Below the pieces are notes generated by a model. That model had not been told where the DNA came from, ran no database searches, and saw only the letters and a program-made list of their open reading frames with translations. A stretch of DNA of 64,000 nucleotides from assembly GCA_965214705.1 (NCBI GenBank), contig CBDCCI010000002.1:768001-832000 (forward strand), in the 5' to 3' direction. The stretch is from Alphaproteobacteria bacterium. Lineage in GTDB: Bacteria; Pseudomonadota; Alphaproteobacteria; UBA828. The position numbers and the translations under genes were made by a program. This document shows positions 12,445 to 34,657 of the stretch, piece after piece (positions within the stretch are counted from its first letter, which is position 1; the number at the start of each line of letters is the position of its first letter).

Positions 12445-15400
12445 GTGAACGACAACGATGGGATGGCAACGTTCCCGGCACTTTTGACGCGGGTCTCGGC
12501 TGTCCTTGCTTGTCTCGTCGGCCTGATGTCGGCGGCCGAGCCAGCCGGGGCCGACCAACTGACGTCCTCGGCAGGCGGCATCCGCGCCGGTTTCGTCGAT
12601 GTGACCGAGACGGTCGGCCTGAGCTATCGCGTCAAGACGGGCGACGAGGAAGCCGCTCCGGAATTGAGCGAGGGAGGCCGGGAGGACGGCGGCCTCGCCC
12701 TTGCCGATGTTGACGGCGACGGCTGGCCCGAGCTCTACGTCGCCCACGGGGCCGGCGAGCCCGGCCGGCTCTTCAGCTGGAACGGACGCCGCTTCGTCCG
12801 CAGCCCCGAGAATGGCGGCATCGCGCCGGCGGCGATGGACCGGGCCGGCTACTTCATCGACCTCGACGAGGACGCCGTTCTGGATTTCCTTTCGATTCAC
12901 GCGGAGGGAACGCAGGCGTTCCGTAACGACGGCAGCGGGCGGTTTAGGGAGTTGCCCACCCCGTTCGGCGCCGGAACCGACCGCTCCGTCTATTCGATGG
13001 CCGCCGCGGATTACGACGGCGACGGCGACCTCGACCCCTTCTTCGCCCACTGGAACCTGCCCTGGAACGGGATCAGGCCGCCCGCCCGCTATCTCTGGCG
13101 CAACGACGGCAAGGGACGCTACGAGGACGTGAGCCACATGGTGCCGGTGCGCCCCGGTGTGGTCCCCCGCACCGGTGACACGCGCGAATTCTCCTTCACG
13201 CCGACCTTCGCCGACATCGACGGCGACGGCGACCCCGACATCCTGCTGGCCGCCGACTTCGGCGCGAGCCAGGTGCTGCGCAACGAAGCCGGCGCCGCCT
13301 TCACCGACATCACCGGTTCCGCCATCACCGACGAGAATGGCATGGGTGCCGCGGTGGGCGACTACGACCTCGACGGGGACATGGACTGGTTCGTTACCAG
13401 CATCCACGATGCGGAGGGCAGCTCCGGCTACGGCCCCACGGGCAACCGGCTCTATCGCAACCTCGGCGATGGCGTGTTCGAGGACGCGACCGACGCCGCC
13501 GGCGTGCGCGAAGGCGGTTGGGGCTGGGGCACCTGCCTCGCCGACTTCGACAACGACGGCCACCGGGATCTGTTCCTCACCAACGGCTGGTTCGGCGAAT
13601 ACGTCGAGGACGCGGACGGCAAGGAGCGGGAGATCACCGCGTTCCTCGAGGACCCGTCGCGGCTCTTCATGGCCAACGGCGACGGCACCTTCACGGAGCG
13701 TGGCGCGGCGCTGGGCATCCGCCACACCGGCCAGGGCCGGGGCGTGGTCTGCGCCGACTACGACGGCGACGGCCGGGTGGACATCCTCATCGCCAACCAC
13801 GGTGCCGCGCCCACGGTCTATCGCAACGTCTTCGAGAGCGGACACCACTGGCTTGCCATCGATCTCGCAGGCCAGCACGCCAACCCGCAAGCCATCGGCG
13901 CGCGGGTCACGGTGCGGACGGCCTCGGGCGACCAGGTGCAGGAGGTGCGGCTCGGGACCGCCTATCTCTCCCAGGCGCCGGCGACGCTGCACTTCGGGCT
14001 GGGCACCGACGAGGCAGCGCACGCCATCGAGGTGCGCTGGCCCGGCCCCGGCAACCAGGTCAGCCGGCTCGGAGCCATCGCCGCCGACCGGCGCATCACC
14101 ATCGACCAGGCGGAGCCCGAGGGTCATCTGCTGCGCGTCGCGCGCGGAACTGGCGCCGGCCTCTATGGCGAAGGCGAGCGGGCCGCCATCAGCGCGGAGC
14201 CGGCCCGCGGCCACTATCGCTTCAGTCACTGGAGCGCCGAGGGCCGCGGTGCGTTCGCCGATGCGCGCGCGCCGGTCACGACCTTCGCTATGCCGGCGGG
14301 GCCCGCGACCGTGTTCGCCTACTACCTGCCCGGCCCGGCGCGGGCGGATGCAGGCGTCTCGGTGGCGCGGCGCTGGATGGAGGTGCTGCTGCAGGCGATC
14401 CGCGACGACTTCGCCCGTCCCACGGTCCATGCCCGCAACCTCTTCCACCTCTCGGCCGCGATGTACGACGCCTGGACCGCATGGTCGACGGCGTCGTCCC
14501 CCTATCACTTTGGCGAGAGCGGTGCCCCCTGCCCGGCCGCGGACCCGCCGGCAGAGGCCGGCGACCTGAGACGCGCGCGTGCGGAGGCGATCAGTCACGC
14601 CGCCTGGCGGCTCGTCCGCCACCGCTTCCAGCATTCGCCGGGCGCCGCCTCGACGCTGCGCAATGCGGACACGCTGATGGCTGCGCTGGGTTTCGATACG
14701 GGCGCCGGTGCGGCCCTCGGGCCGGCGGCGGCGCTCGGCGCCTGCATCGGCGCGTTCTACATCGCTCGAGGGCTCGAGGACGGATCGAACGAAGCCAATG
14801 ACTACGCGAGCATCGCCTATCGCCCGGTCAACGAGGCGCTGGAGCCCGCCGAACCGGGCAATCCCGCGCTCACCGACCCCGACCGCTGGCAGCCCCTCGA
14901 CCTGGAGGTGTTCGTCGGCCAGTCGGGCATCGTCGAAGACGACATTCCCGAATTCGTGTCGCCCGAGTGGGGCCTGGTCACGCCGTTCGCGCTGGCCGAG
15001 GAGGACCTCACGGTCCATCACCGGGACGACACCGACTGGCTCGTCTATCACGACCCCGGCCCGCCGCCGTCTCTGCAGGGCCCGCTCGCCGAGCACTACA
15101 AGTGGGGTTTTGCACTGGTCGCCCGCTGGTCGGCCGCGCTCTCGCCCGAGGACGGGGTGCTTATCGATATCGCGCCGTCGGGCATCGGCAACATCGGCGC
15201 CCTGCCCCGGTCCATCGACGACTACCCCGCCTTCTACGACGGCAACCCGCACGGCCCCGGCCACGCGGTCAATCCCGCCACGGCTGAGCCCTACGCGCCC
15301 CAGGTCGTGCCGCTCGGCGACTACACCCGCGTGCTTGCGGAGTTCTGGGCCGACGGGCCCGATTCCGAGACCCCGCCCGGCCACTGGTTCGTGATCCTGA

Positions 15401-16176
15401 ACGCGGTGAGCGACCATCCGGCGCTGGTCAGGCGGCTCGGCGGCTCGGGGCCGGTGCTCGACCCGCTGGAATGGGAAGTGAAGACCTACTTCGCGCTGGG
15501 CGGCGCGATGCACGACGCCGCCATTGCCTCCTGGGGGATCAAGGGCTGGTACGACTACGTCCGGCCGATCTCGGCGCTCAGGTTCATGGCGGACCGGGGC
15601 CAGTCCAGCGACCCCGCGCTGCCCTCATGGTCGCCGGACGGCATCCCGCTCTCGCCCGGCCTCATCGAGCTGGTCGGCCCCGACGACCCCCTCGCGGGCG
15701 AGGACGGCGCGCATGTGGGAAAGATCAAGTTCCTGGCTTGGCGCGGGCCCGATCATGTGGCGGATCCCGCGACCGACGCAGCCGGCGTCGGCTGGAGCCT
15801 GGCGGAGACCTGGTGGCCCTACCAGCGGCCCTCCTTCGTCACGCCGCCCTTCGCAGGCTACGTCTCCGGCCATTCCACCTACTCGAGGGCTGCGGCGGAG
15901 GTGCTGACGGTGCTCACCGGCGACCCTTTCTTCCCCGGCGGCATGAGCGCGTTCCCGGCTCCGGCGAACGACTTCCTGGTCTTCGAGCGCGGGCCCTCGG
16001 TCGACATGACCCTGCAGTGGGCCACCTACCGCGACGCTGCCGACCAGTGCAGCCTGTCCCGCATCTGGGGTGGCATCCACCCCCCGGCCGATGACATTCC
16101 CGGCCGCCTGATCGGGGAGCGGGTGGGCCGCGATGCCGTCAAGCTGGCGCTATCGCTCTTCGCTGGTGGCGAATAA
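12445..16176 (+). CDS. Secreted FG-GAP/CRTAC1 (ASPIC-UnbV) protein fused to a vanadium haloperoxidase/PAP2-like domain (~1240 aa)
   Basis: Signal-like N-terminus; repeated DxDGDGxxD loops; AIGARV...YLSQ...LHFGLG; short beta repeat (YRFSHWS); C-terminal YDYVRPIS, PPFAGYVSGHS and SRIWGGIH. The start may be ATG 12463. Confidence 0.9.
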   Translation: MNDNDGMATFPALLTRVSAVLACLVGLMSAAEPAGADQLTSSAGGIRAGFVDVTETVGLSYRVKTGDEEAAPELSEGGREDGGLALADVDGDGWPELYVAHGAGEPGRLFSWNGRRFVRSPENGGIAPAAMDRAGYFIDLDEDAVLDFLSIHAEGTQAFRNDGSGRFRELPTPFGAGTDRSVYSMAAADYDGDGDLDPFFAHWNLPWNGIRPPARYLWRNDGKGRYEDVSHMVPVRPGVVPRTGDTREFSFTPTFADIDGDGDPDILLAADFGASQVLRNEAGAAFTDITGSAITDENGMGAAVGDYDLDGDMDWFVTSIHDAEGSSGYGPTGNRLYRNLGDGVFEDATDAAGVREGGWGWGTCLADFDNDGHRDLFLTNGWFGEYVEDADGKEREITAFLEDPSRLFMANGDGTFTERGAALGIRHTGQGRGVVCADYDGDGRVDILIANHGAAPTVYRNVFESGHHWLAIDLAGQHANPQAIGARVTVRTASGDQVQEVRLGTAYLSQAPATLHFGLGTDEAAHAIEVRWPGPGNQVSRLGAIAADRRITIDQAEPEGHLLRVARGTGAGLYGEGERAAISAEPARGHYRFSHWSAEGRGAFADARAPVTTFAMPAGPATVFAYYLPGPARADAGVSVARRWMEVLLQAIRDDFARPTVHARNLFHLSAAMYDAWTAWSTASSPYHFGESGAPCPAADPPAEAGDLRRARAEAISHAAWRLVRHRFQHSPGAASTLRNADTLMAALGFDTGAGAALGPAAALGACIGAFYIARGLEDGSNEANDYASIAYRPVNEALEPAEPGNPALTDPDRWQPLDLEVFVGQSGIVEDDIPEFVSPEWGLVTPFALAEEDLTVHHRDDTDWLVYHDPGPPPSLQGPLAEHYKWGFALVARWSAALSPEDGVLIDIAPSGIGNIGALPRSIDDYPAFYDGNPHGPGHAVNPATAEPYAPQVVPLGDYTRVLAEFWADGPDSETPPGHWFVILNAVSDHPALVRRLGGSGPVLDPLEWEVKTYFALGGAMHDAAIASWGIKGWYDYVRPISALRFMADRGQSSDPALPSWSPDGIPLSPGLIELVGPDDPLAGEDGAHVGKIKFLAWRGPDHVADPATDAAGVGWSLAETWWPYQRPSFVTPPFAGYVSGHSTYSRAAAEVLTVLTGDPFFPGGMSAFPAPANDFLVFERGPSVDMTLQWATYRDAADQCSLSRIWGGIHPPADDIPGRLIGERVGRDAVKLALSLFAGGE

Positions 16177-16284
16177 TCCCGGCGCGACGATTCGCCTGTC
16201 TGCGACACCTCGCCGGTCCTGAATCAATCCCGCCGCCGCCGCGCAGACCGTGGCCGCGGTGAGAAACGAGGGTTCAGCGTGCGG

Positions 16285-16604
16285 CAAGTCATTGTCAGGC
16301 GGCAAAGAGTGCCGCTGCGGCGGCTCATAGGAAATTGCGATTACAGGTATAATTATAAAGTATAGATATAGCTATAACGAATGTACTAGGCTGCGCGTAT
16401 GAGACGGTGCATGTCGCGAGCGGCGATGGAGACGGGTCACCCGAGGGTGCCGCGCCTCCCGGTGCGGGGCCGGCCCTACCGCTTTCGCAACGCGAATTCG
16501 ACGAACCACCCGGCGGCGCAACGAAGGGGCCCGGCAGGCCTTGCCGAGTCGGCTCATCACCCATGCCGCCACCCTGCTCCCAGCCTCCAGAAAGGAAGCG
16601 TGAA
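16285..16604 (+). promoter_or_regulatory. Duplicated promoter/leader of Cys-rich gene 1
   Basis: AT-rich block GGTATAATTATAAAGTATAGATATA, a ~200-nt GC-rich leader and RBS AAAGGAAG. Repeated at 19525-19545 plus 21164-21461. Confidence 0.75.
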
Positions 16605-17219
16605 ATGAGGACGCGACATTCGATTCTTGGCCTGTTGGCATTCGCATTGATCGTGGCCGTTGCGGGCGCAGCCTACGCCGCCTCCTGCAGCGGCTCCAAC
16701 CGGGTGTTCCATTCAAATGCCGAATGCCTGCACGGTTGGTGGGACAACAACGAGTGGCCCAAGGATTCGACGTTCGGAGTTCAAGGCTCCTGTTCAGACT
16801 GGGGCACGGTGGTCGCCAAGATCGAACTCGTCGGGGCGATGGACCGGACCTGGCACTTGAACAACGACAACAAACGAAGGGGTAGTTCAAGCTCAAGAGT
16901 CAATGGCATTCACTGCTGCAAGGATGTCGGTGACCTCTGCAATCACGACGACATGATGACCCCGGACAACTGTAAGAGCCAGTTTGAAGACAGCCCGGCC
17001 GCCAATACCTGTTATCTTTCAGGTGGCCAGTACTATGGCTCGGACGGTCTTTCTCCGGTCAGTGTGTTTGGCGAAGATTGCCACTTCTGGGCGAAGTGCG
17101 AGTACTACGACGAAAACTGGCTCAAACAAGAGAACGAAACCTCGATCGAAGGTGTCTGGTACCCCGATGCCGATACCCTGCGCAACTGTGATGGGGAGTT
17201 GAAGATAGGTAGATGTTGA
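16605..17219 (+). CDS. Secreted cysteine-rich protein 1 (204 aa, 12 Cys, C-terminal Cys)
   Basis: RBS, Sec signal ending AYA, lower GC than the flanks, paralog at 21462-24721. Confidence 0.9.
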   Translation: MRTRHSILGLLAFALIVAVAGAAYAASCSGSNRVFHSNAECLHGWWDNNEWPKDSTFGVQGSCSDWGTVVAKIELVGAMDRTWHLNNDNKRRGSSSSRVNGIHCCKDVGDLCNHDDMMTPDNCKSQFEDSPAANTCYLSGGQYYGSDGLSPVSVFGEDCHFWAKCEYYDENWLKQENETSIEGVWYPDADTLRNCDGELKIGRC

Positions 17220-17257
17220 AGCGAGGTTGAAGACCAAGTGCTTGACGCAAGTTCATT

Positions 17258-18936
17258 GGGTGTGATTCTCGTATGGCGATATGCCAGTCGTGATGGCGCT
17301 AAAGGATATGGGCTGGTTCATTTTGGTCAAGCAGCGAGTGCCAGGACTTCGGTTGGGCTGATGTTGTCGTTAGCTGGTCCGGATCGGGCGTCCATGAGCG
17401 CATCCCATGCCCGGTCGAAGAGGCCGGATTTGATCAGGGCGCGGAAGGTCAGAACCGCCTGCCCGCCGTCGATCCGCCAGCGCATGCCCGAGCGTTTCAA
17501 GCGCTGCGCGACGAGGGTCTTGCAGGCCGCCTCGACCACACCCGAGCCGATGGCGATGCCCTCTTCCTTCAGGGCGTGGTAGCGCATCCGATGGCGGTGC
17601 TTTCGGAAGAAGGCCAGTTCGCGCTCGATCTCGGCCGGGTCCCCCTTTGCCCTGTCCAGGAGGTAGCGCAGTGCCCGGATCACCTTGTCGACGCCGCGGG
17701 GGTCGTGGCGCAGGATTTCGCGGTGCTTCTCGAACCAGTGGCGCGCCACCGCATGGTCAGAGGCCACGCGGAGATGCTCGCAAGCGTGCCAGAAGTCGAT
17801 GACCTCGGTCTCGGGCGAGAGGCTTTCGAGGAAGGTCCAGTTGTCGGCGGCCCCGTCGGCGACGGCGCCGATCCTGATCTTCGGGCTCACACGGCGGATA
17901 TGGGCGACCTCGCTTGCAAGTTGCGCTTTCAGCGCGGCCTTGCCGCTCTCGGGCATACGGCCGAGATAGAGGGTCTTCAGCCGTTGGCCCTCGGCGTCGT
18001 GGAAGGAGACCGTGCCGCAAGAGGCCTCGCGCCAGCACGCCTCGGCACGGCCGTCCTCGCCGGCCCGCAGCGCCACCATGACGCCGTCAAGGGAGACGGA
18101 CGCGGTGACCGCATCGGGCGGTATGCCCTGGGTTTCACGGATGCTGGCCAGCGTCTCCGGGGCGACGCTCTCCCAGTGCTCATGCATGCTCAGGGCCAGG
18201 CGCTGCAGCGTGCTCACCGACGGCGTCATTCCGCCCATTTTCGCGAAGAACTCCTCCGCTTCACGCGGCGTACAGTGGCCCATCATCATCAGCCCGAGCT
18301 GCGCCGCCGGCCGCGTCAGGTAGTCGTCGATGAGGCCCAGGCTCTCGTCCACCGGCACCAGCGACGTGCTGCTCGCGCCGCTGCGATAGCGCGCACGCCG
18401 ATAGGTCACGGGACCGAGCGTCGTCATGATCGTCTTCGGCGTCGCCGCCACCCGGACCCAGCTCTGTCCGTCGCGCTCGATCCGGCTCGCACCGTCGTCG
18501 CGGCTCTCGGCGAAGGCCCCAAGGAGCTTGCAACCCAAGCCGTTCATGGCGTCCCGCAGCCCCGTCTCAACCGTTTCGAACGTCTCGGCAGACGGGTCAG
18601 ACCCAGCCTGTTCGCGACAGAACTCCACCACCTGGGCGACCGCTTCGGCGACTTCGGCAGGCAGGCCCAAAAGGTCGATGGACGAGGCGATGAGAGACTG
18701 CGACACTGGCATGGGAACGCTCCTGATGTTGGGTCTGATGTTGGGTTGTCGGCGCGGCATCCTACCGCATCTCGCGGTGCGGAGCGTTCCCACCCACCAC
18801 TGCTGGATGCCGCCGTTGTGACAAAATCCGGCCCTGCACCGGCCGATTGTCACGAAAACCCGATTCTGGCTGCCTACGGCCACCCGCCAATCGCGCTAAA
18901 TCAATGACTTACGATCGCCATGCCAGACCTACACCC
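17258..18936 (-). mobile_element. ISKra4/ISLre2-like (Mutator-type) insertion sequence
   Basis: Imperfect 23-bp TIRs GGGTGT...ATGGCGAT. 8-bp target duplication AGTTCATT at 17250-17257 and 18937-18944. Confidence 0.9.
17327..18712 (-). CDS. ISKra4-like DDE transposase
   Basis: SLDGVMV, ADGAADNW, IDFWHACEHL, IGSGVVEAACK...RLKRSGMRW. AGGAG precedes ATG 18712. Confidence 0.88.
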   Translation of the reverse strand: MPVSQSLIASSIDLLGLPAEVAEAVAQVVEFCREQAGSDPSAETFETVETGLRDAMNGLGCKLLGAFAESRDDGASRIERDGQSWVRVAATPKTIMTTLGPVTYRRARYRSGASSTSLVPVDESLGLIDDYLTRPAAQLGLMMMGHCTPREAEEFFAKMGGMTPSVSTLQRLALSMHEHWESVAPETLASIRETQGIPPDAVTASVSLDGVMVALRAGEDGRAEACWREASCGTVSFHDAEGQRLKTLYLGRMPESGKAALKAQLASEVAHIRRVSPKIRIGAVADGAADNWTFLESLSPETEVIDFWHACEHLRVASDHAVARHWFEKHREILRHDPRGVDKVIRALRYLLDRAKGDPAEIERELAFFRKHRHRMRYHALKEEGIAIGSGVVEAACKTLVAQRLKRSGMRWRIDGGQAVLTFRALIKSGLFDRAWDALMDARSGPANDNISPTEVLALAA

Positions 18937-19084
18937 AGTTCATTCCAAGTAGGCTAGTTGGGGAGGGGAGCCCGCAGGATGAACACCGGAGCGTGGAGAA
19001 ACCGGACATCGGTATCTTTCGTATTCCGTCTTCTCATGCTGGCCGGCACCTTGAAATCCGCCGCCTGAACATGTCCGGCCCTAG

Positions 19085-19375
19085 CCCGGCTTTCTCACCA
19101 AGGTCATGGTCTGCGCGGCGCTGTCCGGGCGACAGGGCAGGAAAGGCGCGCAGCGCGATGCAGGGACATCGGGCAAGCGACTTGACGAACCCTGTCGCCC
19201 GGAGAGCGCCGCCCTTCGGGTCGCGCCCAGGCGCCCGCCCGCGTCGCGCGTTCCACGCGCGCGGGAGCGCGCGATGCGGGCCTCAACCGTATTCCCCGAT
19301 ACGCTTTTCGGCCCGCTTCTTGCGGATAGAACACCTGGGAGCGACGCAGGCCGTGACATTGGTGAGAAATCCGGG
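19085..19375. mobile_element. Putative MITE (291 bp, non-coding)
   Basis: ~31-bp imperfect TIRs CCCGGCTTTCTCACCAAGGTCATGGTCTGCG / CGCAGGCCGTGACATTGGTGAGAAATCCGGG, flanked by CTAG and CTAA. Confidence 0.75.
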
Positions 19376-19420
19376 CTAAGGGTCCACTCCGATAAGGGCT
19401 AATATTCCACGCTCAAGAAC

Positions 19421-19494
19421 TGCTCACCGGCGATTCCTTCTTCCTCGGCGGGATGAGCGAATTCGAGTTCCCGGCGAACGACTTCCTGGTCTTC
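19421..19494 (+). repeat. Relic of a second haloperoxidase gene 3' region
   Basis: Gap-free match to 15911-15984; translates LTGDSFFLGGMSEFEFPANDFLVF versus LTGDPFFPGGMSAFPAPANDFLVF. Confidence 0.85.
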
Positions 19495-19545
19495 AGGCTC
19501 GGACCAGCCCGCCTAGGGCACCGTAAGTCGTTGTCAGGAGGCTAA

Positions 19546-21159
19546 CCCGACTTATTCACGGAGAACCTTGCGGTTGAGGCTGGGTTGTCGGGTCGCGTCG
19601 TGGCCTGACGCGGTTTGGCGCCGGGATCTGAGGATGGGTCGCTATTGGGTTGAGGGTTGAACGAGCCTGGGTTGTCGGGGCACATCGCCCCGGCGCTCAG
19701 GGGCCTGCTGCGGCGAGGCGGCCTGCGAGCAGTCGGAAGAGAGCGGCGTCCGGGCAGGCCGAGGTGAAGTGGATGCGGACGCGGGTGGCCTTCTCGATGA
19801 CGCGGGTGCCGATCTTGAGGAGGCGCAGCCTGAGGGTTGCGAACTCTGCACGGGCGAGCGGCGCCGTGCGGGGAATGGCGTCGCGCAGCGCGAGCATCAT
19901 CCAGTAGGCTGCGGTGTGGAGCACCAGCCTGAGCTGGTTGGCGAGCGGGCTCTGGCAGGAGGTGCGGTCCGAGGCGAGCTGGCCCTTGTGCATCTTGATC
20001 AGGTTTTCGGCCTGGCCTCGGGCACAGTAGATGTCTTCGTAGAGACGGCGGGGCTCGCCCTTGAGCGAGGTGACGATATAGCGCGCGTCGAAGCCGCGCG
20101 TCGTCGCCTCGAGCCGGGCAACGACCCGGCGTTCGCGGCTCCAGGAGCGGGCGGCGTAGGCGAAGGCGGCGAAGCTGCGCATCCTGTCCGCGCCGGCCTC
20201 GGCGCGGCGGACCTTGAGGTCGTCGGCCACCTCGTAGGCCAAGGCGTTGAGCGCGCGGTTGCCCGCGAGGCCGAAGATGTAGTCGACGCCGTTCTCCTCG
20301 CACCAGGCCATGGCTTGCGGGCGGCCGTAGTGCGCATCTCCCCGGAAGACGATCCGGGTGTGCGGCCAGTGGCGGCGGATGCGGCCGACCAGATGCTTGA
20401 TGAGGGTGCGGACCTCGGGCCCCGACGGCGTCTTGCCCGGACGCAGGAGAACCGCCACCGGCTTGCCGCTCTCGACATGATAGACGTGGACGGGGAGGAA
20501 GCAGCGCGTGTCGTAATGAGCGTTGAACAGCGACAGCTGCTGGTGCCCGTGCACGGCATCGCAGGTGTCGTCGATATCCAGCGTGATGGCGGCAGGTGGG
20601 GCTGAGAAGGAGCGGCAGAAGAGATCGACCAGGGCGGCCGTCATGCGCGCCACCTCGATGCGAGACGGCGCGTTCTCCAGGCGGCTCATGGTCGGTTGAG
20701 AACACAGGTCGCGGCTGCTTTCCGGCGCCTTGCCTGAGGCCAGCTTGAACAGCGGGTCCGTGCGCAGCGCGTCGCAGTCGTCGCCATCCTCGTAACCGCA
20801 GGCGATGGCCAGCATGCGAAAGCGCAGCATGGCGGAGAGCGGGTGGACCACCTGCGCCTGATTGCGCCGGTCGCGGATGCAGCCCGCCAGGGTCTCGGCC
20901 AGACGTAAACTGCGCTCCGCCTCGCGCAACAGGACCAGGCCGCCGTCAGACGAGATCAGGCCGCCGTCGAAGGCGGCGCTCACCCTCTTGCGTTGGACGC
21001 TTGGCAGATCGAAGGGGAGAAGGCTATCGTCGGTCATGGCGGGCGTGGCTTTTTCGTTGTTCGGAGAGGAAGACGCCTCGACAACGAATTCCTACCCGAT
21101 GGCAACGGCTTACGCTACGTCCGCCACCCCAAAATCAGACCCGCCACGAATAATCCGGG
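19546..21159 (-). mobile_element. IS1380-family element, copy B (diverged isoform of copy A)
   Basis: Ends CCCGACTTATTC / GAATAATCCGGG. Target duplication CTAA at 19542-19545 and 21160-21163. Confidence 0.93.
19697..21037 (-). CDS. IS1380-family transposase (446 aa)
   Basis: Near-identical to the 1058-2398 protein. Confidence 0.95.
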   Translation of the reverse strand: MTDDSLLPFDLPSVQRKRVSAAFDGGLISSDGGLVLLREAERSLRLAETLAGCIRDRRNQAQVVHPLSAMLRFRMLAIACGYEDGDDCDALRTDPLFKLASGKAPESSRDLCSQPTMSRLENAPSRIEVARMTAALVDLFCRSFSAPPAAITLDIDDTCDAVHGHQQLSLFNAHYDTRCFLPVHVYHVESGKPVAVLLRPGKTPSGPEVRTLIKHLVGRIRRHWPHTRIVFRGDAHYGRPQAMAWCEENGVDYIFGLAGNRALNALAYEVADDLKVRRAEAGADRMRSFAAFAYAARSWSRERRVVARLEATTRGFDARYIVTSLKGEPRRLYEDIYCARGQAENLIKMHKGQLASDRTSCQSPLANQLRLVLHTAAYWMMLALRDAIPRTAPLARAEFATLRLRLLKIGTRVIEKATRVRIHFTSACPDAALFRLLAGRLAAAGP

Positions 21160-26753: not shown

Positions 26754-27801
26754 TGGAGCCGCACACCGACGTCCACGGGCGTGTGCTGGAGAACCTGCTG
26801 GACGGGGTGATGGTGGTCGAGCGCGGCGGCACCATCGCGGTGTTCAATGGTGCGGCCGGCCGCATCCTGGGCATGGCGCCGGACGAGGTGCTGGGGAAGA
26901 GCTTCGCCGAGCTGTTCGTCCCGCACGACGAGCTGGAAGAGTTCAGCGAGCTCGTGCTGGGCACGGTTGCGGGCGAGAGCGAGAGCGGCCGGCAGGTGGT
27001 GACGCTCGATCCCGGCGGCCAGCCGCGCTCGCTCTCGGTATCGACGTCCTACATCAGGCAGACCGTCGGCGGCGTGTCCGAGCCGATGGCGCTGATCGCC
27101 GTCTTCAGCGACATCACTGAGATCAGGGAACTGCGCGAGACCGAGCTTCGCATGGCGAAGGAGGTGGAAGCGCAGCACGCCGAGCTGCAGTCGGCCTACC
27201 GGCAGATCGAGGAGCGCAGCGAGACCCTGGCCCGGACACTGAAGAAGGTCCAGGTGGCGCGGATCATGGCGACGGTGCTGGTGATCGGGGTGTTCCTGGG
27301 CGCCGGCGCCTACGTGTGGCGGCCGTTCGACCACGTCGATGTGCCGTTCATCGGCGGCTCGTCGGGCTCGTCGATGATCGCCGAGGCCGACGCCGATACC
27401 GCGAGCGGCCTTTACACCCTGACGGTGGAGCCCGAGCCGGTGCGCGAGACGATCTCGCTGGCGGGAACGCTCGAGCCGTGGCGCTCGGTGTCGGTCGCGA
27501 GCCCGCTTGAGAGCCACATCGCCGTCGTGCACTTCCGCCAGGGCCAGGCGGTGACGGAGGGCGACCTCCTGATCGAGCTCAACACCTCGGAGACGGTTCG
27601 CCTGCACCGCGAGGCGCAGGTGAAGCACATCGAGGCGCTGAGGGCGTTCGAGACCGTCAGGGACTGGGAGAGCGGGCCCGAGATGGCCGAGGCGCGGCGC
27701 TCGTTTGCGCGGGCGCGGATGGCGCTGGAAAGCCAGGAGAAGCAGCTGAAGCGGACTGCATTCCTGCTGGAGCAGGGGCTCGTTCCCGCATCGGATCACG
27801 A

Positions 27802-29961
27802 CCCAAGTTGGCACTTTTCCGCTGCCTGTGTTCCCTATTGGTTTGATTCAACGCGATATTTTTCTCGGTCGATTCCAACATGGCCCCACATTTTGTGAGA
27901 TTCTGTCAGCTCATCAGACGGGTCCTCGTGCGGTGGATGGCGGGGTCCACGCCCGCCGCCGAGGAGATTGCGGCAACCTCGGCGGCCGGGCGCGTGTCCT
28001 GGCGGTTGACGATCAAGGTGCCGTCGGTCTGGCGCAGGCGCGTGGTGATCCGCACCCAGGTCCGCATGCTCTCGCGGATCGACGCCCAGCACTTGTGGAT
28101 GCCGCGCGCGGCCAGCCGGGTACGGATCAGATGCACGGCGTGGTAGGCCAGCACGGCGATCAGCAGGTGGGCCGCGATGCGCCGGTCGAGCTGGTGCCAG
28201 ATCGGGCGAAGGCCGAGCTCGGATTTCAGGCTCCGGAATGTCGCCTCGATATCCGTGATCCGCCAGTACGTCCGCAGGACCGTCTCGATGTCCCAGTCGA
28301 CGTGGCTGGTGCGCAGCACATAGGCACCGGCGCCCTCATCGGCCTCGTCGTATCGCGGCCTGCGCTTGAAGCGCACGGCGGTGGCATTGGGGCCGGTTTT
28401 CGCCCTCTCGACCGTGATCTCGTAGTGCCTGGCGACGGCGGAGAAGCGCTGCTTGAGGCGGCCTATGCTCTCCAGCACCTTGTCGTAGCGCTTGAGGCGG
28501 CCCTTGACCGGGAGGCCGCCGTGGAGCCTTTCCAGCGCCGCCTCGAAGCGGTTCCGCCTCAGGCCGATGATCGCGTTCTCGGCCTTCTTCTTGCCCTCGC
28601 TGACGACGTAGAGCCGCGCCTCGCCGTCCTCGCTGGCAAGCCGCCAGGCCCGCACCTCGTGGCGCGCGCTGGTGATCAGCAGGGCCTCGGGTCCGCCCTC
28701 GGGCGGCGCAGGCCTGGCACCGCGGCTGACCGCGATCCAGTCGTAGCCCTGCTCGCCCAGCCACGCGATGTTTTTCTCGGTGGCGATGCCCGCGTCCATG
28801 ACCACCGTGGGCTTCGGCGCCGTGCCGCCGCACACCGCCTCGAGCCGCGCCAGCGCCTCGTGCAGCGTGCCCGGCTCGCTCACGTTGCCCGGCAGGATCT
28901 CGCAACTGCGCGGGAAGCCCGCGCCGTCGAGCGCCAGCGCCAGCGTGATGAGGGGACAGTCGTCGCGCTTCTGCTTGGAGCGCCCGAACCTGGGAAGCTC
29001 GCCGCCCGTGTGGCCGTGGTAGTGGACGTTGGTGAGATCGTAGAAGGCGATCGTCTCGGGCAGGTCGAGCAGTGCGCGCTCACGGTTGAACAGCTCCCGC
29101 TGGATGGCGGCGCGGTGGCGCCAGAGCAGGTCGCCGATGCGGTAGAGCGTCTTGCGCCGCAGCGCCTTGCGGTCGCCCTCCAGGCCCAGGAGCTCGGCGG
29201 CCGCGCTGTCGTGGCGGAGCCAGCGGCTGGTATCACGCTCGCTGGCGGGATGGACCATCCTGGCGACGATCAGCGCGCTGGCGATGCGCCCGTCGCGGCC
29301 CTTGATGTCGAGGCCGTGGAGGATTTCGGCGAAGCCGAGGGCGTCGAGGGCCTTGAGGCACAGGCGCTCGCAGCCGACCGTGCGCGGGTTCTCGTGCTCC
29401 AGGGTATCGAGGTCGACGGTGGCGATGTCGGGCTTGCGCGCCTCTTCCTGCATCGCCTCGACGCGGAACCCCCTGGCCCTGAGCTTGGCGACGATGTCCT
29501 CGGCTGCGGCCCGCACATCCGCCTCGCCCTCGAACAGCGGCGGCTTGCCGTGAAGCAGCGCCTCGGCGAGTTCGGTGACGGCCTTCCACTTCTCGCGCGG
29601 CACCGGATAGTCGGTGCCGAGATTGAGCAGCGTCCTGTGGCGCACCTTGTCGCCGACGCGCTGGGCGAGCACGAGGCGATGGCTTCGGACCGGCTGGCCG
29701 GCCTTGTCGGTGTGTGTCCTGGTTGCCTTGATGTACATGGCGGCGCCGTTTCTGCGATGCCTGTTTCGCATACACGGCGTTCGCGGCATCTGGCAAGAGG
29801 GATATCGACTCAACTCCAAAGTCCTGGCCCCACAATTGGCTTCCAGGACCACGAATGGCAAATGTGGGTCTCAGGTGTCCTCCAACCCCAACATCTAGTG
29901 GTTCAGCGCCGCAAAACTGGCTCGAACAGGCTCGGCTGGTCGGAAAAAGTGCCAACTTGGG
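27802..29961 (-). mobile_element. IS1634-family element
   Basis: TIRs CCCAAGTTGGCACTTTT / AAAAGTGCCAACTTGGG. Duplication ACGA at 27798-27801 and 29962-29965. Confidence 0.92.
27906..29738 (-). CDS. IS1634-family transposase
   Basis: RTLLNLG, FYDLTN, FGRSKQKRDD, VMDAG and IEATFRSLKSELGLRPIWH motifs. Confidence 0.92.
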   Translation of the reverse strand: MYIKATRTHTDKAGQPVRSHRLVLAQRVGDKVRHRTLLNLGTDYPVPREKWKAVTELAEALLHGKPPLFEGEADVRAAAEDIVAKLRARGFRVEAMQEEARKPDIATVDLDTLEHENPRTVGCERLCLKALDALGFAEILHGLDIKGRDGRIASALIVARMVHPASERDTSRWLRHDSAAAELLGLEGDRKALRRKTLYRIGDLLWRHRAAIQRELFNRERALLDLPETIAFYDLTNVHYHGHTGGELPRFGRSKQKRDDCPLITLALALDGAGFPRSCEILPGNVSEPGTLHEALARLEAVCGGTAPKPTVVMDAGIATEKNIAWLGEQGYDWIAVSRGARPAPPEGGPEALLITSARHEVRAWRLASEDGEARLYVVSEGKKKAENAIIGLRRNRFEAALERLHGGLPVKGRLKRYDKVLESIGRLKQRFSAVARHYEITVERAKTGPNATAVRFKRRPRYDEADEGAGAYVLRTSHVDWDIETVLRTYWRITDIEATFRSLKSELGLRPIWHQLDRRIAAHLLIAVLAYHAVHLIRTRLAARGIHKCWASIRESMRTWVRITTRLRQTDGTLIVNRQDTRPAAEVAAISSAAGVDPAIHRTRTRLMS

Positions 29962-30712
29962 ACGAGGATGCGGAGCGCCAGTATCGGGGCCAGCTCCTGG
30001 ATTTCGAGGCAGCCCAGGAGGACCTCGCCGCGGCGCGTGCCAGGGGCGGCCAGGAGGCACTGGACAAGGTGGCGCTGGAGCTGAGCACCGCCGAAGAGGA
30101 GTTGCAGGAGCTGGCGGAGAGCCTCGGCCAGAGCCGAATCCATGCGCCGCTCTCGGGTGTCGTGCTGGCCGGGTCCGGCCGCGCAGGCTTGTCGGAGGGC
30201 AGCAAGGTCGGCAAGGGCCAGGTGGTGGCGACTATCGGCGACTTCAGCCGCATGGCGGCTACGGCCAAGGTCGACGAGGTCGACGTGGTGCGGATCGCGG
30301 TCGGCCAGGCGGTCACCGTGACCGGCAACGCCTTCGGCGGCCTGCGCCTGCGAGGGACCGTGACTCACGTCGCCTCCCAGCCCGATCCCCGCTCGCGGGG
30401 CACGCCCCAGTTCGACGTGGCGGTGACGCTGGATCCGCTCGATGAGGAGCAGATGGAGCGGATCCGCGCCGGCATGTCGAGCCGCCTCAGGATCGTGGTT
30501 TACAGCAAGGAGGCGGCGCTGATGGTGCCGCTCGAGGCGGTGGAGGATCGGGGGCGCTCCTACTGGGTGAGCGTGGTCGACCCGTCGACCCGGGAGGTGG
30601 GCGAGCGGGAGGTGGTCATCGGACCGACCACCCAGGATTCGGTCGAGATCACGGCCGGGCTGCAGGCCGGCGACGAGATCGTGATTCGGGAACGATAGCC
30701 ATAAGCCTCGCA

Positions 30713-31405
30713 ATGCTGCGGCTGGTTGACATCCAAAAATCCTTCAGGCTGGGCACGATCGACGTGGAGGTTCTACGCGGCGTCAACCTGGAGGTGGCGG
30801 AGGGCGAGCTGCTCTCGATCATGGGCCCGTCCGGCAGCGGCAAGTCCACGCTGATGAACATCATCGGCCTGCTGGGCAGGCCCACGGCGGGCTCCTACTT
30901 CCTCGACGGGCGCGATGTCTCGTCGATGAAGGACCGGGAGCTGTCGGCCTTCCGCAACATGCACATCGGCTTCGTGTTCCAGTCCTTCAACCTGCTGGAC
31001 CACCTGACGGCGCTGGAGAACGTGGCGGTGCCGCTGGTCTATCGCGGTCTGGGCCGGGGCGAGATCAGGCGCCGGGCGCGGGAGATGCTGGAGAAGGTCG
31101 GCATGGAAGACCGGCTCGGCCACAAGCCGGACCAGCTCTCGGGCGGGCAGAAGCAGCGGGTGGCGATCGCCCGTGCGCTGGTGGGGAAGCCCTCGGTGGT
31201 ACTCGCCGACGAGCCGACGGGTGCGCTCGATTCGGACACCGCCGAGGAGGTCATGCAGCTCCTCATCCGCCTCAACCGGGAGGACCGGATCACGATCCTG
31301 ATCATCACCCACGACCTCCTGGTCTCACGGCTCTGCGAGCGTCAAACCATGATCCGCGGCGGCGCTCTGCTGGGAGGCCTGCACCAGGCCGAAGCGGCGG
31401 AGTGA
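30713..31405 (+). CDS. ABC exporter ATP-binding subunit (MacB/LolD type)
   Basis: GPSGSGKST, IGFVFQSFNL, LSGGQKQR and LADEPTGALD motifs. Confidence 0.95.
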   Translation: MLRLVDIQKSFRLGTIDVEVLRGVNLEVAEGELLSIMGPSGSGKSTLMNIIGLLGRPTAGSYFLDGRDVSSMKDRELSAFRNMHIGFVFQSFNLLDHLTALENVAVPLVYRGLGRGEIRRRAREMLEKVGMEDRLGHKPDQLSGGQKQRVAIARALVGKPSVVLADEPTGALDSDTAEEVMQLLIRLNREDRITILIITHDLLVSRLCERQTMIRGGALLGGLHQAEAAE

Positions 31406-31411
31406 GGCGCC

Positions 31412-32623
31412 GTGCGGAGCGTGCGCACGGCCCTTACGTCCACGCTGCGCGAGGCGGTGCGCAGCCTCTACGGCGCCCGGCTGCGCACGCTGCTGGGGCT
31501 GATCGGCATCATGATCGGCATTGCCTCGGTGATCACCATGATCTCGATCGGCGAGATCGCGAAGTCCCAGTCGCGCAAGGATTTCGAGGCGCTGGGCACG
31601 GACATTCTCACCGTCAAGCCGCCGGACCACCTGATCGGCAGCCCCAGCCGTGCGACCATCGGGCTCGACGACGCGCTCTCCTTGGCGGAGGTGCTGCCGT
31701 CCGTCTCGGTGGCAGCGCCCCGGATCGAGACGCAGGGCACCTTCCGCTACGCAGGCAGGCGTGTCGGCAGCGGCTCGGTGCAGGGGGTCTCCGCCTCGTT
31801 CGCAGAGGTGAACAAGCTAACGATGGCCGAGGGGCGGTTCGTCTCGAACCTCGACAGGGGCCGCTACTTCGCGGTGGTCGGCGCGGATGTGGCAAACGCC
31901 ATGCGCCGGCGCGGCGCCGGTACCGTGGTAGGCCAGATCCTGCAGGTGGGCGGGCGCCTCTACACGGTACTCGGCGCGCTCGAGTCCGCGCCGGAGACCT
32001 ATGCGCTGCCGTTCTCGGTGGATGCGAACCGCTCGATCTTCGTGCCCATCACCACCGTGCGCCGCACCGAGCCCGAGGCGCAGATCGAGCTGATCATCGC
32101 CCGCGCGGCGCCGGGCGTGCACTACGCCGATGCCACGCGCGACGTGCAGGCCTACTTCGCTAAGCGCGCCAGGGGGCTCGAGCTCGAGGTCGTCAGCGCC
32201 GAGCAGCTCATCGAGCAGATGGAATCGCAGCTCGGGCTGATGACCCTGCTGCTGGCCGCCGTCGGCTGCGTCAGCCTGATCGTCGGCGGCATCGGGGTGA
32301 TGAACATCATGCTGATCTCGGTGGCCGAGCGGCGCCGCGAGATCGGTGTCCGCCGAGCGCTCGGCGCGAACCGCGGTGACATCCAGCGCCAATTCCTGAT
32401 CGAAGCCCTGATCCTGACCCTCGGCGGCGGCATCGCCGGGGTGATCGCCGGCACCGGCGCGGCTTACGGGATCGCCCACATTTACGCCTGGGAGTTCTTC
32501 ATCTCCCCGGCCTCGATCGTCGTCGGCGTCGGCGTCTCTACGGCAGTCGGAATCTTCTTCGGCTTCCAGCCCGCCTATCAGGCCTCCCGCCTCGACCCCA
32601 TCGTTGCCCTGCAGGGGGAATAG
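31412..32623 (+). CDS. ABC exporter permease (MacB/FtsX type)
   Basis: LIGIMIGIASV, VGGIGVMNIMLISVAERRREIGVRRALGA and PAYQASRLDP motifs. Confidence 0.95.
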   Translation: MRSVRTALTSTLREAVRSLYGARLRTLLGLIGIMIGIASVITMISIGEIAKSQSRKDFEALGTDILTVKPPDHLIGSPSRATIGLDDALSLAEVLPSVSVAAPRIETQGTFRYAGRRVGSGSVQGVSASFAEVNKLTMAEGRFVSNLDRGRYFAVVGADVANAMRRRGAGTVVGQILQVGGRLYTVLGALESAPETYALPFSVDANRSIFVPITTVRRTEPEAQIELIIARAAPGVHYADATRDVQAYFAKRARGLELEVVSAEQLIEQMESQLGLMTLLLAAVGCVSLIVGGIGVMNIMLISVAERRREIGVRRALGANRGDIQRQFLIEALILTLGGGIAGVIAGTGAAYGIAHIYAWEFFISPASIVVGVGVSTAVGIFFGFQPAYQASRLDPIVALQGE

Positions 32624-32647: not shown

Positions 32648-34231
32648 GTGACGCACCCAACCACCCGCGCGGCCGATGCCATGACAGGTGCATTCGGCCG
32701 CATCCGCACTCTCGCCGCCCGGCCGGTCTCCGGCCAGTCTCTCGCCGTCTTCCGCATCGCCTTCGGCCTGCTGATGCTCAACGACGTCGTGCACCTGCTG
32801 AGGCACGACTGGCTCACGGGCTTCTATATCGACCGCGCCATCCTGTTCCCCTACTACGGGCTGGAGGTGCCGGCGCTGCCGGCCCCCTGGCTGCACCTGC
32901 TGTGGGGCCTCTGCGGACTCTGCTGCGTGGCAGTGGCGCTCGGCGCCTTCTACCGGATCGCGATCTGGGGCTTCAACGCGATCTTCATCTACGTCTTCCT
33001 GCTCGATCAGCTGCTCTACCTCAACCACTTCTACATGATCGCGCTCTTCGGGCTGCTGCTGGGCTGCACCGACGCGCATCGCTGCTGGTCGGTGGACCGC
33101 AGGCTCGGGCGCATCGGCGGCACGACGAAGGTGCCGCTCTGGAACCTGTTCATCCTTCAGTTCCAGGTGGAGGTGATCCTGATCTTCGCCGGCCTCGTGA
33201 AGATCGAGATCGACTGGCTGCGGGGTGAGCCGCTCAGGACCTGGATGCTGGAGCGCCCGTGGTCGCCCTTGTCTTCCCTGTTCGAGGTGCACTGGATCAC
33301 GCTCGCGGCGCCCGTGCTGATCATCCTGCTCCACACCGTGGGCGCGCCGCTGCTGCTCTGGTCGAAGACCCGGCTCTGGGTGTTCCTGCTCTATTGCGCC
33401 TTCCACGTGACCAATGCCCATCTGTTCAACATCGGCGTCTTCCCATGGATGACGATCGCGGCCACGACGATCCTGTTCTCTCCGGAATGGCCCACCGTCC
33501 TCGGCAGGCGGATCGGCGCCTTCCTGACGTGGCTCCGGCTGCCACGGCCGCCCGTGCCGGCGTGGATCGGCCACACGGTACGGATCGTCGGCGGCAGGCC
33601 GGCGGCTGGTGAGGGAGGGCACGCCGCCTTCCGGCCCCTGCACCCGGCGGCGCTTGCGGCGCTCGTCCTCTACGCCCTGGTTCAGGTCTGGCTGCCGGTC
33701 CGCGACACCCTCTTCGAGGGATACGTGGGATGGACGGAAGAGGGCCAAAAATTCTCGTGGCGCATGATGCTCTACGTCCACGGCGCGGACGGGCGCCTCA
33801 TCGCCGTCACGCCGGAGGGCGAGGCCTGGGTCATCGACATGCCGGCGCACCTCGACCCCTTGCAGACCTGGATGGTGTTCGCCAAGCCGGAGATGCTGCT
33901 GCACTTCGCTCATCTGATGAAGGCGCACTACGCGGAGACCGACGTCGGCGAGGTGCGGATCTACGCCGACGTCGTCAAGAACGTGAACGGCCAGCCCTAT
34001 CGGCGCCTCATCGACCCTGACGTGGACCTCGCCGCCGTCGAAGGGATGAACTGGTTCGCAGACGACCCCTGGGTGCTCCGCCCCGAACGGATGCAGGCTG
34101 CCGAGGGTCTGGTCCCCGACTGGTATCCGCCCATCACTGCCGACCGCTTCGACGCCATGCTGGATGCGTTCGGGAATGCGGAGCCATCCCCGCAAAGCGG
34201 GACCGCCGCCGCCCGCAAGGCGCAGGAGTGA
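32648..34231 (+). CDS. HTTM / vitamin-K-dependent gamma-carboxylase-like membrane protein
   Basis: LAVFRIAFG, YLNHFY, AGLVKIEIDW, FHVTNAHLFNIGVFP and FSWRMML parallel the GGCX motifs. The start may be ATG 32681. Confidence 0.9.
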   Translation: MTHPTTRAADAMTGAFGRIRTLAARPVSGQSLAVFRIAFGLLMLNDVVHLLRHDWLTGFYIDRAILFPYYGLEVPALPAPWLHLLWGLCGLCCVAVALGAFYRIAIWGFNAIFIYVFLLDQLLYLNHFYMIALFGLLLGCTDAHRCWSVDRRLGRIGGTTKVPLWNLFILQFQVEVILIFAGLVKIEIDWLRGEPLRTWMLERPWSPLSSLFEVHWITLAAPVLIILLHTVGAPLLLWSKTRLWVFLLYCAFHVTNAHLFNIGVFPWMTIAATTILFSPEWPTVLGRRIGAFLTWLRLPRPPVPAWIGHTVRIVGGRPAAGEGGHAAFRPLHPAALAALVLYALVQVWLPVRDTLFEGYVGWTEEGQKFSWRMMLYVHGADGRLIAVTPEGEAWVIDMPAHLDPLQTWMVFAKPEMLLHFAHLMKAHYAETDVGEVRIYADVVKNVNGQPYRRLIDPDVDLAAVEGMNWFADDPWVLRPERMQAAEGLVPDWYPPITADRFDAMLDAFGNAEPSPQSGTAAARKAQE

Positions 34232-34246
34232 TCCGATGGCGCGGCC

Positions 34247-34657
34247 TCAGTCCCGGAAGCGCGGCGTGCCCTTGACCAGCAACGCCGCGCGCCGGAGCCG
34301 GCGCAGCCAGGGGTAGACCGCGCGCACCCGTGCAGGGCTCGATGCGAACCAGCGCGCGAACGTGTTGAAGCGGCCGGGGCTGGCGGCCATCGCCTTGAGC
34401 GCGATCATCGCCGCGGCGCCGTGATAGTGCCGGCCGTCGAGTGCCAGGATCATCCCCTGCTCGAGATCGAAGCCGTCACGCCGCAGCCGGGCGACGAGGC
34501 CGGGCGCCTCCCTGCCGTCGATAAGCGTCAGAGGACGACCGGTGTGCGTCTCGAACCGGGACTTCGCGACATAGTAGCTGCAGAACGGGCATTCGCCGTC
34601 ATAGAGCAGGAAGGGGTCCGGCGGGCAGGTGGCTGCGGCGTCGTCCGTCTCGGCCAT
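34247..34657 (-). CDS. DCC1-like (DUF393) thiol-disulfide oxidoreductase
   Basis: LLYDGECPFC (DxxCxxC), YHGAAA and YPWL motifs. Confidence 0.88.
   Translation of the reverse strand: MAETDDAAATCPPDPFLLYDGECPFCSYYVAKSRFETHTGRPLTLIDGREAPGLVARLRRDGFDLEQGMILALDGRHYHGAAAMIALKAMAASPGRFNTFARWFASSPARVRAVYPWLRRLRRAALLVKGTPRFRD

Follow-up and report, generated by a model that had tools for sequence, protein, structure and literature searches.

The 64,000-nucleotide stretch analysed here (the window: contig CBDCCI010000002.1, positions 768,001 to 832,000, of the alphaproteobacterial assembly GCA_965214705.1) carries, from 12445 onwards, a locus for cysteine-rich (Cys-rich) proteins, a MacB-type pump and several enzymes. 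We tentatively read it, with slightly less than even confidence, as a conserved, laterally mobile cluster of metagenome-assembled Alphaproteobacteria and Candidatus Binatia that is decaying here, and whose Cys-rich cargo would be exported by Sec, folded through disulfides and expelled by the pump, with optional tailoring. To about the same tentative degree, we take the core of the cluster to be one to three tandem genes for ~20-kDa acidic proteins with 12 cysteines, together with a dedicated MacB-type tripartite pump. The genome comprises 7.9 Mb (67% G+C) in three contigs and is 98.5% complete, with a contamination estimate of 8.7%.

Open reading frames (ORFs) and Pfam matches give the plus-strand order as a fusion of FG-GAP/ASPIC and haloperoxidase-like parts, Cys-rich gene 1, a relic, Cys-rich gene 2, the pump genes (TolC, PAS-bearing adaptor, ATP-binding cassette (ABC) ATPase, MacB permease) and a vitamin K carboxylase (GGCX)-like gene of the HTTM family; a convergent DCC1 gene closes the locus. 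This is the order given in a preliminary description of the DNA, and each gene named there lies where it was placed. The overlaps or gaps of tens of bases that it reported from TolC to HTTM are likewise borne out by the ORF coordinates, which give a 4-bp overlap followed by gaps of 14, 6 and 24 bp, with a further 15 bp to DCC1. TolC through HTTM are packed in an operon-like manner. The genes of the cluster are as follows.

12445-16176, plus strand: secreted fusion protein of 1243 residues, with FG-GAP beta-propeller repeats, ASPIC/UnbV, Flg_new_2 and a C-terminal vanadium-haloperoxidase-like (PAP2-superfamily) domain (Pfam).
16605-17219, plus strand: Cys-rich gene 1, 204 residues, intact, in no Pfam or NCBIfam family.
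21462-21751, plus strand: 5' part of Cys-rich gene 2 (subtype B), interrupted by an IS91/integrase element.
24439-24721, plus strand: Cys-rich gene 2, 3' part; ORF 24485-24721 has the C-terminal Cys pattern of subtype B.
25278-26753, plus strand: TolC-family outer-membrane factor, 491 residues (OEP, E 2e-35).
26750-27798, plus strand: adaptor (membrane fusion protein), 5' part (PAS, E 8e-12; Biotin_lipoyl_2).
29968-30698, plus strand: adaptor, 3' part, HlyD_3 / HlyD_D23 (Pfam on the long frame).
30713-31405, plus strand: ABC ATPase of MacB/LolD type, 230 residues (ABC_tran, E 3e-35).
31412-32623, plus strand: MacB-type permease, 403 residues (MacB_PCD, E 2e-33; FtsX, E 1e-23).
32648-34231, plus strand: GGCX-like membrane enzyme, full-length, 527 residues, with HTTM and VKGC lumenal domain (Pfam).
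34247-34711, minus strand: DCC1-like thiol-disulfide oxidoreductase, 154 residues from a TTG start (ATG at 34657), convergent with HTTM (PF04134).

Cys-rich protein 1 has a signal peptide followed by a mature chain of 179 residues (20.0 kDa, isoelectric point 4.69) containing 12 Cys, 8 Trp and 28 Asp plus Glu; it matched no Pfam family, and no NCBIfam family at E ≤ 0.001. Homologues are almost all metagenomic (36 at E ≤ 0.01 in a word-indexed search), and a profile search of 1.84 billion representatives returned 304 clusters at E ≤ 0.001, of which 204 reach 1e-10 and 52 reach 1e-30. Across 72 sequences eight of the cysteines are invariant and four more nearly so. Two subtypes exist, frequently in tandem, and the 5' part of Cys-rich gene 2 is 66–68% identical to gene 1 over 100 residues. 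The N-terminal module is also found alone or repeated, and 10 of the 18 longer relatives scanned carry Calx-beta domains. Judged by sequence, the Cys-rich proteins form an undescribed family for which Pfam has no model. We rejected a lipoprotein reading of the invariant Cys that follows the signal peptide: Tyr or His at -3 and sometimes Asp at -1 do not fit a lipobox, and an A-x-A motif suits signal peptidase I. The Cys-rich genes of the window and of loci L002 to L011 have a G+C content at third codon positions (GC3) of 0.62–0.77, against 0.8–0.93 for their neighbours, in every genome examined.

An AlphaFold2 model of Cys-rich protein 1 from a 72-sequence alignment is predicted to form two domains (pLDDT 89.6, pTM 0.75); it replaces an earlier model from 23 sequences whose N-terminal half was poor (pLDDT 68.7). 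The N-terminal domain (residues ~32–106) resembles generic beta-sandwiches, with tendamistat the best match at Z 5.8. The C-terminal domain (model residues 128–203) matches four cyanovirin-N homology (CVNH) entries at Z 5.0–5.3, with root-mean-square deviations of 2.3–3.0 Å over 49–56 aligned residues. No chain reached Z 8 in this comparison, Foldseek against the PDB gave nothing at E ≤ 0.001 for either model, and the CVNH profile PF08881 matched none of 23 family members at E ≤ 10. CVNH also headed the ESM Atlas matches at 0.80, a score that shuffled proteins attain a third of the time. The model thus suggests a beta-sandwich joined to a small beta-rich domain of weak cyanovirin-like resemblance, and because the resemblance is weak throughout we treat a lectin-like binding role as a lead only.

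The pump is complete in its parts. The permease, single-copy in the genome at E ≤ 1e-5, combines a MacB periplasmic core with a C-terminal FtsX domain, as a type VII ABC pump requires, and its cognate ATPase, adaptor and TolC duct share its operon, the adaptor gene being split here by an insertion sequence (IS). The TolC protein is 91% identical to its orthologue in genome G036, of the same genus, and scores under the cut-off of TIGR01844; for the ATPase, NCBIfam ranks the MacB N-terminal half and LolD highest, each under its equivalog cut-off. The 5' part of the adaptor encodes a cytoplasmic PAS domain, one hydrophobic stretch (read by eye) and the start of the periplasmic adaptor. The gene is intact at the G036 locus (L021), as an orthologue of 594 residues to which the 3' part here is 91% identical. 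All intact adaptors of the examined loci keep the N-terminal PAS region, and the architecture recurs in 259 clusters at E ≤ 1e-10. As the cytoplasmic N terminus of an adaptor can control pump activity (PMC5985334), a gating role for the conserved PAS domain is plausible.

Conservation of the cluster was assessed in other genomes. A Cys pattern scan of species-representative genomes gave 11 loci in seven metagenome-assembled genomes (MAGs), titled Alphaproteobacteria, one Thalassobaculaceae and two Candidatus Binatia; altogether 14 Cys-bearing regions from 11 genomes were examined, nine of them from the pattern scan alone. The numbers of regions with each component within ~10 kb of the Cys-rich genes were as follows; the 14-region counts are biased upward, since L020 was chosen for its HTTM gene and L021, L023 and L025 for their Cys-rich genes, two of them near an HTTM match.

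Pump genes: 9 of 14 regions overall; 4 of 9 from the pattern scan.
Haloperoxidase fusion: 7 of 14 overall; 4 of 9 from the pattern scan.
HTTM: 6 of 14 overall; 2 of 9 from the pattern scan.
DCC1: 7 of 14 overall; 3 of 9 from the pattern scan.

The Cys-rich genes are linked most strongly to the pump and to the fusion. In G036 three Cys-rich genes are followed by TolC, PAS-adaptor, ABC, MacB and HTTM with a convergent DCC1, 80–93% identical in protein to the window from TolC to DCC1, and the fusion lies on another contig. G055 has a reversed pump, three Cys-rich genes, the fusion and a STAS gene, and no HTTM match in the genome. In the Thalassobaculaceae MAG the order is Cys-B, fusion, adaptor, MacB, HTTM, Cys-A, LuxR, TolC and ABC, followed by a convergent DCC1 and then ScsC. 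Across 49 genomes of the window's taxonomic order, the Cys family occurs in 10, all of its own genus (10 of 21 including the window), the haloperoxidase half in nine (one a fragment) and HTTM in four (one a C-terminal piece only). The preliminary expectation that the components recur together is partly borne out, with the qualifications that the order is shuffled, that some Cys-rich genes stand alone and that HTTM with DCC1 can be free-standing. Linkage kept through such rearrangement argues for functional coupling.

Related loci also carry gene types beyond those of the window, namely a LuxR-type regulator, a ScsC/DsbA-like periplasmic thioredoxin (in four related loci plus L020) and a double-STAS protein; none had a tblastn match in the window, and homologues lie elsewhere in the genome. 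The two-STAS-domain protein stands beside the PAS-adaptor pump at L005 3186-3884, L008 12522-13244, L020 7207-7920 and L025 13596-14270, and could be a regulatory partner. In the window's genome, its closest homologue is ~2 kb away from the top-ranking ABC paralogue (C1:3835271-3838374). At L020 (G007:C5:2458000-2477000), short genes at 16755-17015 and 18289-18594 encode only the N-terminal module of the Cys family; they adjoin a complete TolC, PAS-adaptor, ABC, MacB, HTTM, DCC1, ScsC and STAS set, ~50 kb from the other Cys/fusion locus of G007.

That the Cys-rich proteins are cargo of the pump, that the HTTM protein or the fusion acts on them, and any role outside the cell are inferences. In the sequence of events proposed, they would cross the inner membrane by Sec and lose the signal peptide, and six disulfides would form in the periplasm, where the ScsC/DsbA-like protein of related loci could assist. 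The pump, gated from the cytoplasm by the PAS domain, would then drive the folded protein out across the outer membrane, in the manner of MacAB-TolC with STII and of the Aat system with dispersin/CexE. Accessories in some genomes would be the secreted propeller–haloperoxidase-like fusion with its intact active-site motifs, and the GGCX-like HTTM protein with its DCC1 partner, possibly tailoring the cargo.

Several observations weigh against this proposal. The cargo, at 20 kDa, would be twice the size of the 10-kDa dispersin, a possible upper bound for MacB cargo (PMC5985334). Members of the pump family far outnumber those of the close Cys family, and many such pumps may therefore serve other substrates. 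In five of the 14 Cys regions no pump gene lies within 10 kb; four of these five lack any other cluster gene and have as neighbours integrases, recombinases, genes of unrelated metabolism or a giant adhesin-like protein. The Binatia locus L007 has three Cys-rich genes around the fusion, with no MacB pump within 10 kb.

In an alternative reading, which we consider unlikely though the most probable of the rivals, the Cys-rich genes, pump, fusion and HTTM with DCC1 would merely travel together on mobile, IS-rich islands of co-habiting symbionts, each functioning without the others. In a class-wide sample, 4 of 401 genomes (including the window's) have a GGCX-like homologue, and in both usable contexts of that sample (G323 and G316) HTTM and DCC1 adjoin directly as a two-gene unit among unrelated, housekeeping genes. 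This free-standing pair, in two distant alphaproteobacteria without the other cluster genes, indicates that HTTM and DCC1 are a module of their own, joined to the cluster in some genomes. The solitary Cys-rich genes next to integrases and recombinases and the separate contig of the G036 fusion point the same way, as do the deviant composition of the Cys-rich genes (GC3 0.69–0.77 in the window, against 0.89–0.92 for neighbours) and the setting of the window locus on an island with a TOTE defence gene, toxin–antitoxin genes and many IS. Against independent functions, linkage survives several rearrangements, the Cys-rich and fusion genes are paired in both alphaproteobacterial and Binatia MAGs, all three full-length HTTM genes found in the genus lie within a Cys cluster, and TolC through HTTM are operon-like.

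We regard it as less probable still that the pump serves self-protection or a small molecule, the Cys-rich proteins or reactive halogen products of the haloperoxidase-like enzyme being antagonistic. The MacB pump would in that case not secrete the proteins but rid the envelope of these agents or of a small product, much as YknXYZ protects Bacillus from SDP. Known roles of MacB-family pumps include protection from endogenous peptide toxins and the export of small molecules, pyoverdine among them, and a 20-kDa cargo would exceed their known protein substrates (PMC5985334); in B. subtilis the Sec-exported 203-residue SdpC requires SdpA and SdpB to mature (PMC6818787). However, no small-molecule biosynthetic genes were seen in any locus examined, no toxin domain was detected in the Cys-rich proteins, and the fold leads indicate binding modules rather than membrane-active peptides.

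Whether the accessory enzymes would modify the Cys-rich proteins turns on the fusion and the HTTM protein. In Pfam the fusion matches FG-GAP_3 in six stretches (E 3e-41), UnbV_ASPIC, Flg_new_2 and VCPO_2nd (32.8 bits; cut-off 27), and it matched no NCBIfam family at E ≤ 0.001. All five PDB matches of its C-terminal half at E ≤ 1 are bacterial vanadium haloperoxidases or NapH proteins (E 5e-10 to 0.057). K-x6-RP, SGH and SR-x5-H-x3-D, which we take to be the phosphate/vanadate-binding motifs, are invariant in all eight fusion orthologues, which are 67–78% identical even between alphaproteobacterial and Binatia MAGs. On sequence grounds the domain could be a haloperoxidase, a PAP2 phosphatase or a non-halogenating relative; NapH3 is a non-halogenating member of the haloperoxidase family. 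Nothing connects the domain to protein halogenation, and the likeness to conotoxins drawn earlier stays an analogy.

The HTTM protein is similar to GGCX over its full length (HTTM PF05090, 227.7 bits, E 2e-67; VKGC lumenal domain PF22777, 108.7 bits, E 3e-31), matching human GGCX at E 4e-45 over ~460 residues. It has seven orthologues, 66–89% identical. In human GGCX, Lys218, Asp263 and Asn290 are catalytic and the 384–415 region is needed for carboxylation; giant-virus homologues that are epoxidases only are without this region, to which the SW.MM stretch belongs (PMC13486548). Inspection by eye of a single pairwise HMMER alignment shows the equivalents of Lys218 and Asn290, an FH..N motif and the SW.MM stretch to be kept, with Asp263 aligned to Thr. 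DCC1 scores 36.6 bits for PF04134 (cut-off 27.8), has D-x-x-C-x-x-C visible in its translation and adjoins HTTM in every context seen; an HTTM–DCC1 fusion protein has been reported (bioRxiv 10.64898/2026.08.19.745780). Neither protein matched an NCBIfam family at E ≤ 0.001.

The preliminary description proposed that the Cys-rich proteins are possibly carboxylated and/or halogenated before export by the pump. In the full form of this model, the GGCX-like enzyme would carboxylate Asp or Glu and the haloperoxidase-like domain would halogenate aromatic residues. We consider so full a pathway improbable, more so than self-protection. In its favour are the kept catalytic-lysine equivalent and region needed for carboxylation (PMC13486548), the recurrence of HTTM enzymes in peptide-maturation loci (PMC9927463, PMC6818787), the high Asp, Glu and Trp content of the Cys-rich proteins, and the six regions with HTTM inside Cys clusters. 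Against it, and against the tailoring step of our own proposal, HTTM and DCC1 form a solitary pair in two distant genomes, three of the seven other Cys-bearing genomes gave no HTTM match, and no acidic column is specific to the HTTM-linked Cys-rich proteins. Conserved acidic residues in the family are Asp in nearly every case, and no Glu is conserved. The 98.5%-complete genome, searched for the menaquinone pathway by two markers only, gave no MenB above cut-off (best 153.6 against 342.7 bits) and no match to the MqnA-type PF02621, so the usual GGCX cofactor may not be made; cofactor uptake or another quinol may still serve the enzyme. Complex prediction for the GGCX-like protein (seven-row alignment) with mature Cys-rich protein 1 (72 rows) scored 0.00 twice in runs that had no controls, which is evidence neither way. 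Carboxylation and halogenation of the Cys-rich proteins thus go unsupported, and the farthest extension, a bacterial counterpart of the animal vitamin K cycle in which the GGCX-like enzyme would carboxylate them, DCC1 (in related loci with the ScsC/DsbA-like protein) would recycle the quinone and feed disulfides, the haloperoxidase-like fusion would add a second modification and the PAS-gated pump would release the product into a host matrix, is just as improbable.

The damage to the window copy is seen in its inserted elements, which were delimited by their copies elsewhere in the genome and are listed here together with the haloperoxidase relic.

17257-18937, minus strand: IS with a UPF0236 (ISLre2-like) transposase at 17327-18883 (Pfam); up to 26 genome copies.
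19421-19505, plus strand: remnant of another haloperoxidase-fusion gene, of which just the 3' region is left (nucleotide identity, tblastn).
19540-21166, minus strand: IS1380-family element, transposase at 19697-21037 (DDE_Tnp_1_4, E 4e-161); up to 10 genome copies.
21752-24438, minus strand: composite element with an IS91-family transposase at 22072-23313 and a tyrosine integrase at 23320-24360 (Y2_Tnp, Zn_Tnp_IS91, Phage_integrase); up to 108 genome copies.
27799-29967, minus strand: IS4-family element, transposase at 27906-29861, splitting the adaptor gene (DDE_Tnp_1); up to 66 genome copies.

Five inserted elements had been claimed; four lie inside the locus, and five are reached if the IS91 transposase and integrase are counted separately or if an element fragment immediately outside it (11422-12066) is added. 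The ISLre2-like element is bordered by the direct repeat GTTCAT, and a second IS1380 copy lies at 1058-2398 of the window. In the intact locus L021, sequence corresponding to 21389-21763 of the window is joined directly to that of 24427-24783 (the 3' region of Cys-rich gene 2 aligning to L021 11982-12351), and 25211-27801 and 29962-34730 run on uninterrupted, with the IS4 element absent. Since the flanks are contiguous there, the breaks in Cys-rich gene 2 and the adaptor gene are true insertions. The haloperoxidase relic reported earlier is real, yet tiny: its 85 bp are 81% identical to 15911-15995 of the intact fusion gene (tblastn, 72% over 29 residues). A stretch of 304 bp after the IS1380 element (21167-21470) is 92% identical to the region upstream of Cys-rich gene 1, and together with the relic this points to an old tandem duplication of the fusion 3' end and a Cys-rich gene.

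Because IS elements split the adaptor gene and Cys-rich gene 2, the system is probably out of use in this genome; the locus itself is probably in decay as IS elements spread through the genome at large. Three read contigs from other runs on 16300-31000 stop fitting at IS boundaries (X5 at 21763 and 27797, X7 at 24430) and continue for 116–225 letters. These stops hint at IS-free alleles; no bridging joint occurs among the 15 of 57 joints shown, and we draw no conclusion from them. The IS load is very heavy genome-wide, with up to 108 near-identical copies of IS91 plus integrase and up to 66 of IS4, and the 7.9-Mb genome compares with 2.8–6.3 Mb in 20 other species of the genus. Elsewhere in the window's genome, G000, the sites C1:1745587-1745967 and C1:1752436-1753581 hold a fragmentary second copy of the propeller part (71–74% identity over 38–118 residues) and, ~6 kb from it, a homologue of the LuxR-type regulator of related clusters; the two may mark another decayed locus.

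The surroundings of the cluster were also surveyed. It is flanked by a PIN-domain toxin gene (10775-11191, minus strand) and a HicB-like antitoxin gene (35404-35793, plus strand), which fits a mobile accessory island. A gene for a 1000-residue protein (4475-7477, minus strand), with a TOTE conflict-system archaeo-eukaryotic primase (E 5e-96) and a ResIII/DEAD helicase, is a defence-island neighbour; three ORFs upstream of it match no Pfam family (TOTE gene and ORFs at 4475-7477 and 7162-10533, both minus strand). Farther on, 53300-63906 (minus strand) is an ordinary block for purine/urate catabolism, with genes for an amidohydrolase, OHCU decarboxylase, membrane urate oxidase, PnrA-type ABC uptake, XdhC and the Mo-subunit of xanthine dehydrogenase.

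The bacterium is likely sponge-associated and marine. The stretch 12445-17250 is nearly complete (word shares 0.97–0.99) in four runs from a single study (the source sample may be among them) and partly present (0.24–0.37) in runs labelled as sponge metagenomes from three studies; contigs of one such run match the locus with few differences, for example 2 in 718 bases. As the Cys family, pump and fusion are shared by Alphaproteobacteria and Candidatus Binatia MAGs and the stretch occurs in sponge-metagenome runs, they are candidate factors of host or community interaction.

In open-access full text and bioRxiv we found no paper on the Cys-rich family, the propeller–haloperoxidase fusion, a PAS-adaptor pump unit with them, or the recruitment of GGCX-like and DCC1 proteins. 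A 2026 preprint advances a structure-based hypothesis for a bacterial vitamin K carboxylase homologue complex (bioRxiv 10.64898/2026.08.19.745780), and the open-access full texts and bioRxiv entries found name no natural protein substrate of such a homologue. The cluster supplies a candidate substrate family encoded beside a GGCX-like enzyme; were the vitamin K cycle to operate here, a bacterial gamma-carboxylase homologue would for the first time have a natural protein substrate. Export of a folded 20-kDa protein, if true, would widen the known size range of MacB-type secretion.

The best PDB matches of the fusion are NapH1/NapH3 and the Zobellia iodoperoxidase, all of whose phosphate/vanadate-binding motifs it keeps; the similarity is low (E 5e-10 at best), and here the domain comes after an FG-GAP/ASPIC propeller region of 640 residues that has a signal peptide. 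The GGCX-like protein shares with human GGCX its full length, including the lumenal domain and catalytic-lysine equivalent, and the ever-adjacent CxxC partner DCC1, with a DsbA-like protein nearby in related loci, recalls a quinone-recycling partner. In contrast to the human system, no gamma-carboxyglutamate domain or propeptide was recognised here, Asp263 is unmatched and menaquinone-pathway markers were not found; DCC1 is unrelated to VKOR, and both activities, carboxylation and recycling, are putative. SdpB is likewise an HTTM protein. As with SdpB, the linaridin HTTM proteins and MloH, which carboxylates Asp in the malonomycin pathway, as the preliminary description had noted, the HTTM enzyme is encoded beside a secreted or exported product needing maturation (PMC6818787, PMC9927463, bioRxiv 10.64898/2026.08.19.745780). 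Unlike them, the window protein is of GGCX length with a lumenal domain and matches no NCBIfam family, and its candidate substrates are folded 20-kDa proteins rather than short peptides or a polyketide-peptide.

The nearest precedents for export are MacAB-TolC and Aat. The preliminary description had noted that pumps of the former type can export folded periplasmic peptides; MacAB-TolC takes the Sec-delivered, disulfide-bonded STII from the periplasm through MacB, a hexameric adaptor and TolC; dispersin is similarly exported by Sec, folded by Dsb and taken from the periplasm by a MacB pump (PMC5985334). All four pump parts are present in the window. Whereas STII is a ~5-kDa peptide with two disulfides, the cargo here would be ~20 kDa with 12 Cys, and here ATPase and permease are separate genes, the adaptor bears a PAS domain and the presumed cargo has its genes next to those of the pump. 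Aat (AatPABCD), which modifies and secretes CexE (PMC7943197), shares with the window a dedicated MacB-like pump encoded with a small Sec-exported protein (PMC7943197, PMC5985334). The membrane enzyme of the Aat locus modifies the cargo before export, as an acyltransferase acting on the N-terminal glycine; the candidates here are the GGCX-like HTTM and haloperoxidase-like proteins, the cargo families are unrelated, and no acyltransferase was seen in Pfam scans of the window and related loci. The pump and each enzyme belong to known superfamilies, and the cluster stands out as a dedicated MacB-type locus whose presumed cargo is new and whose accessory enzymes are unusual.

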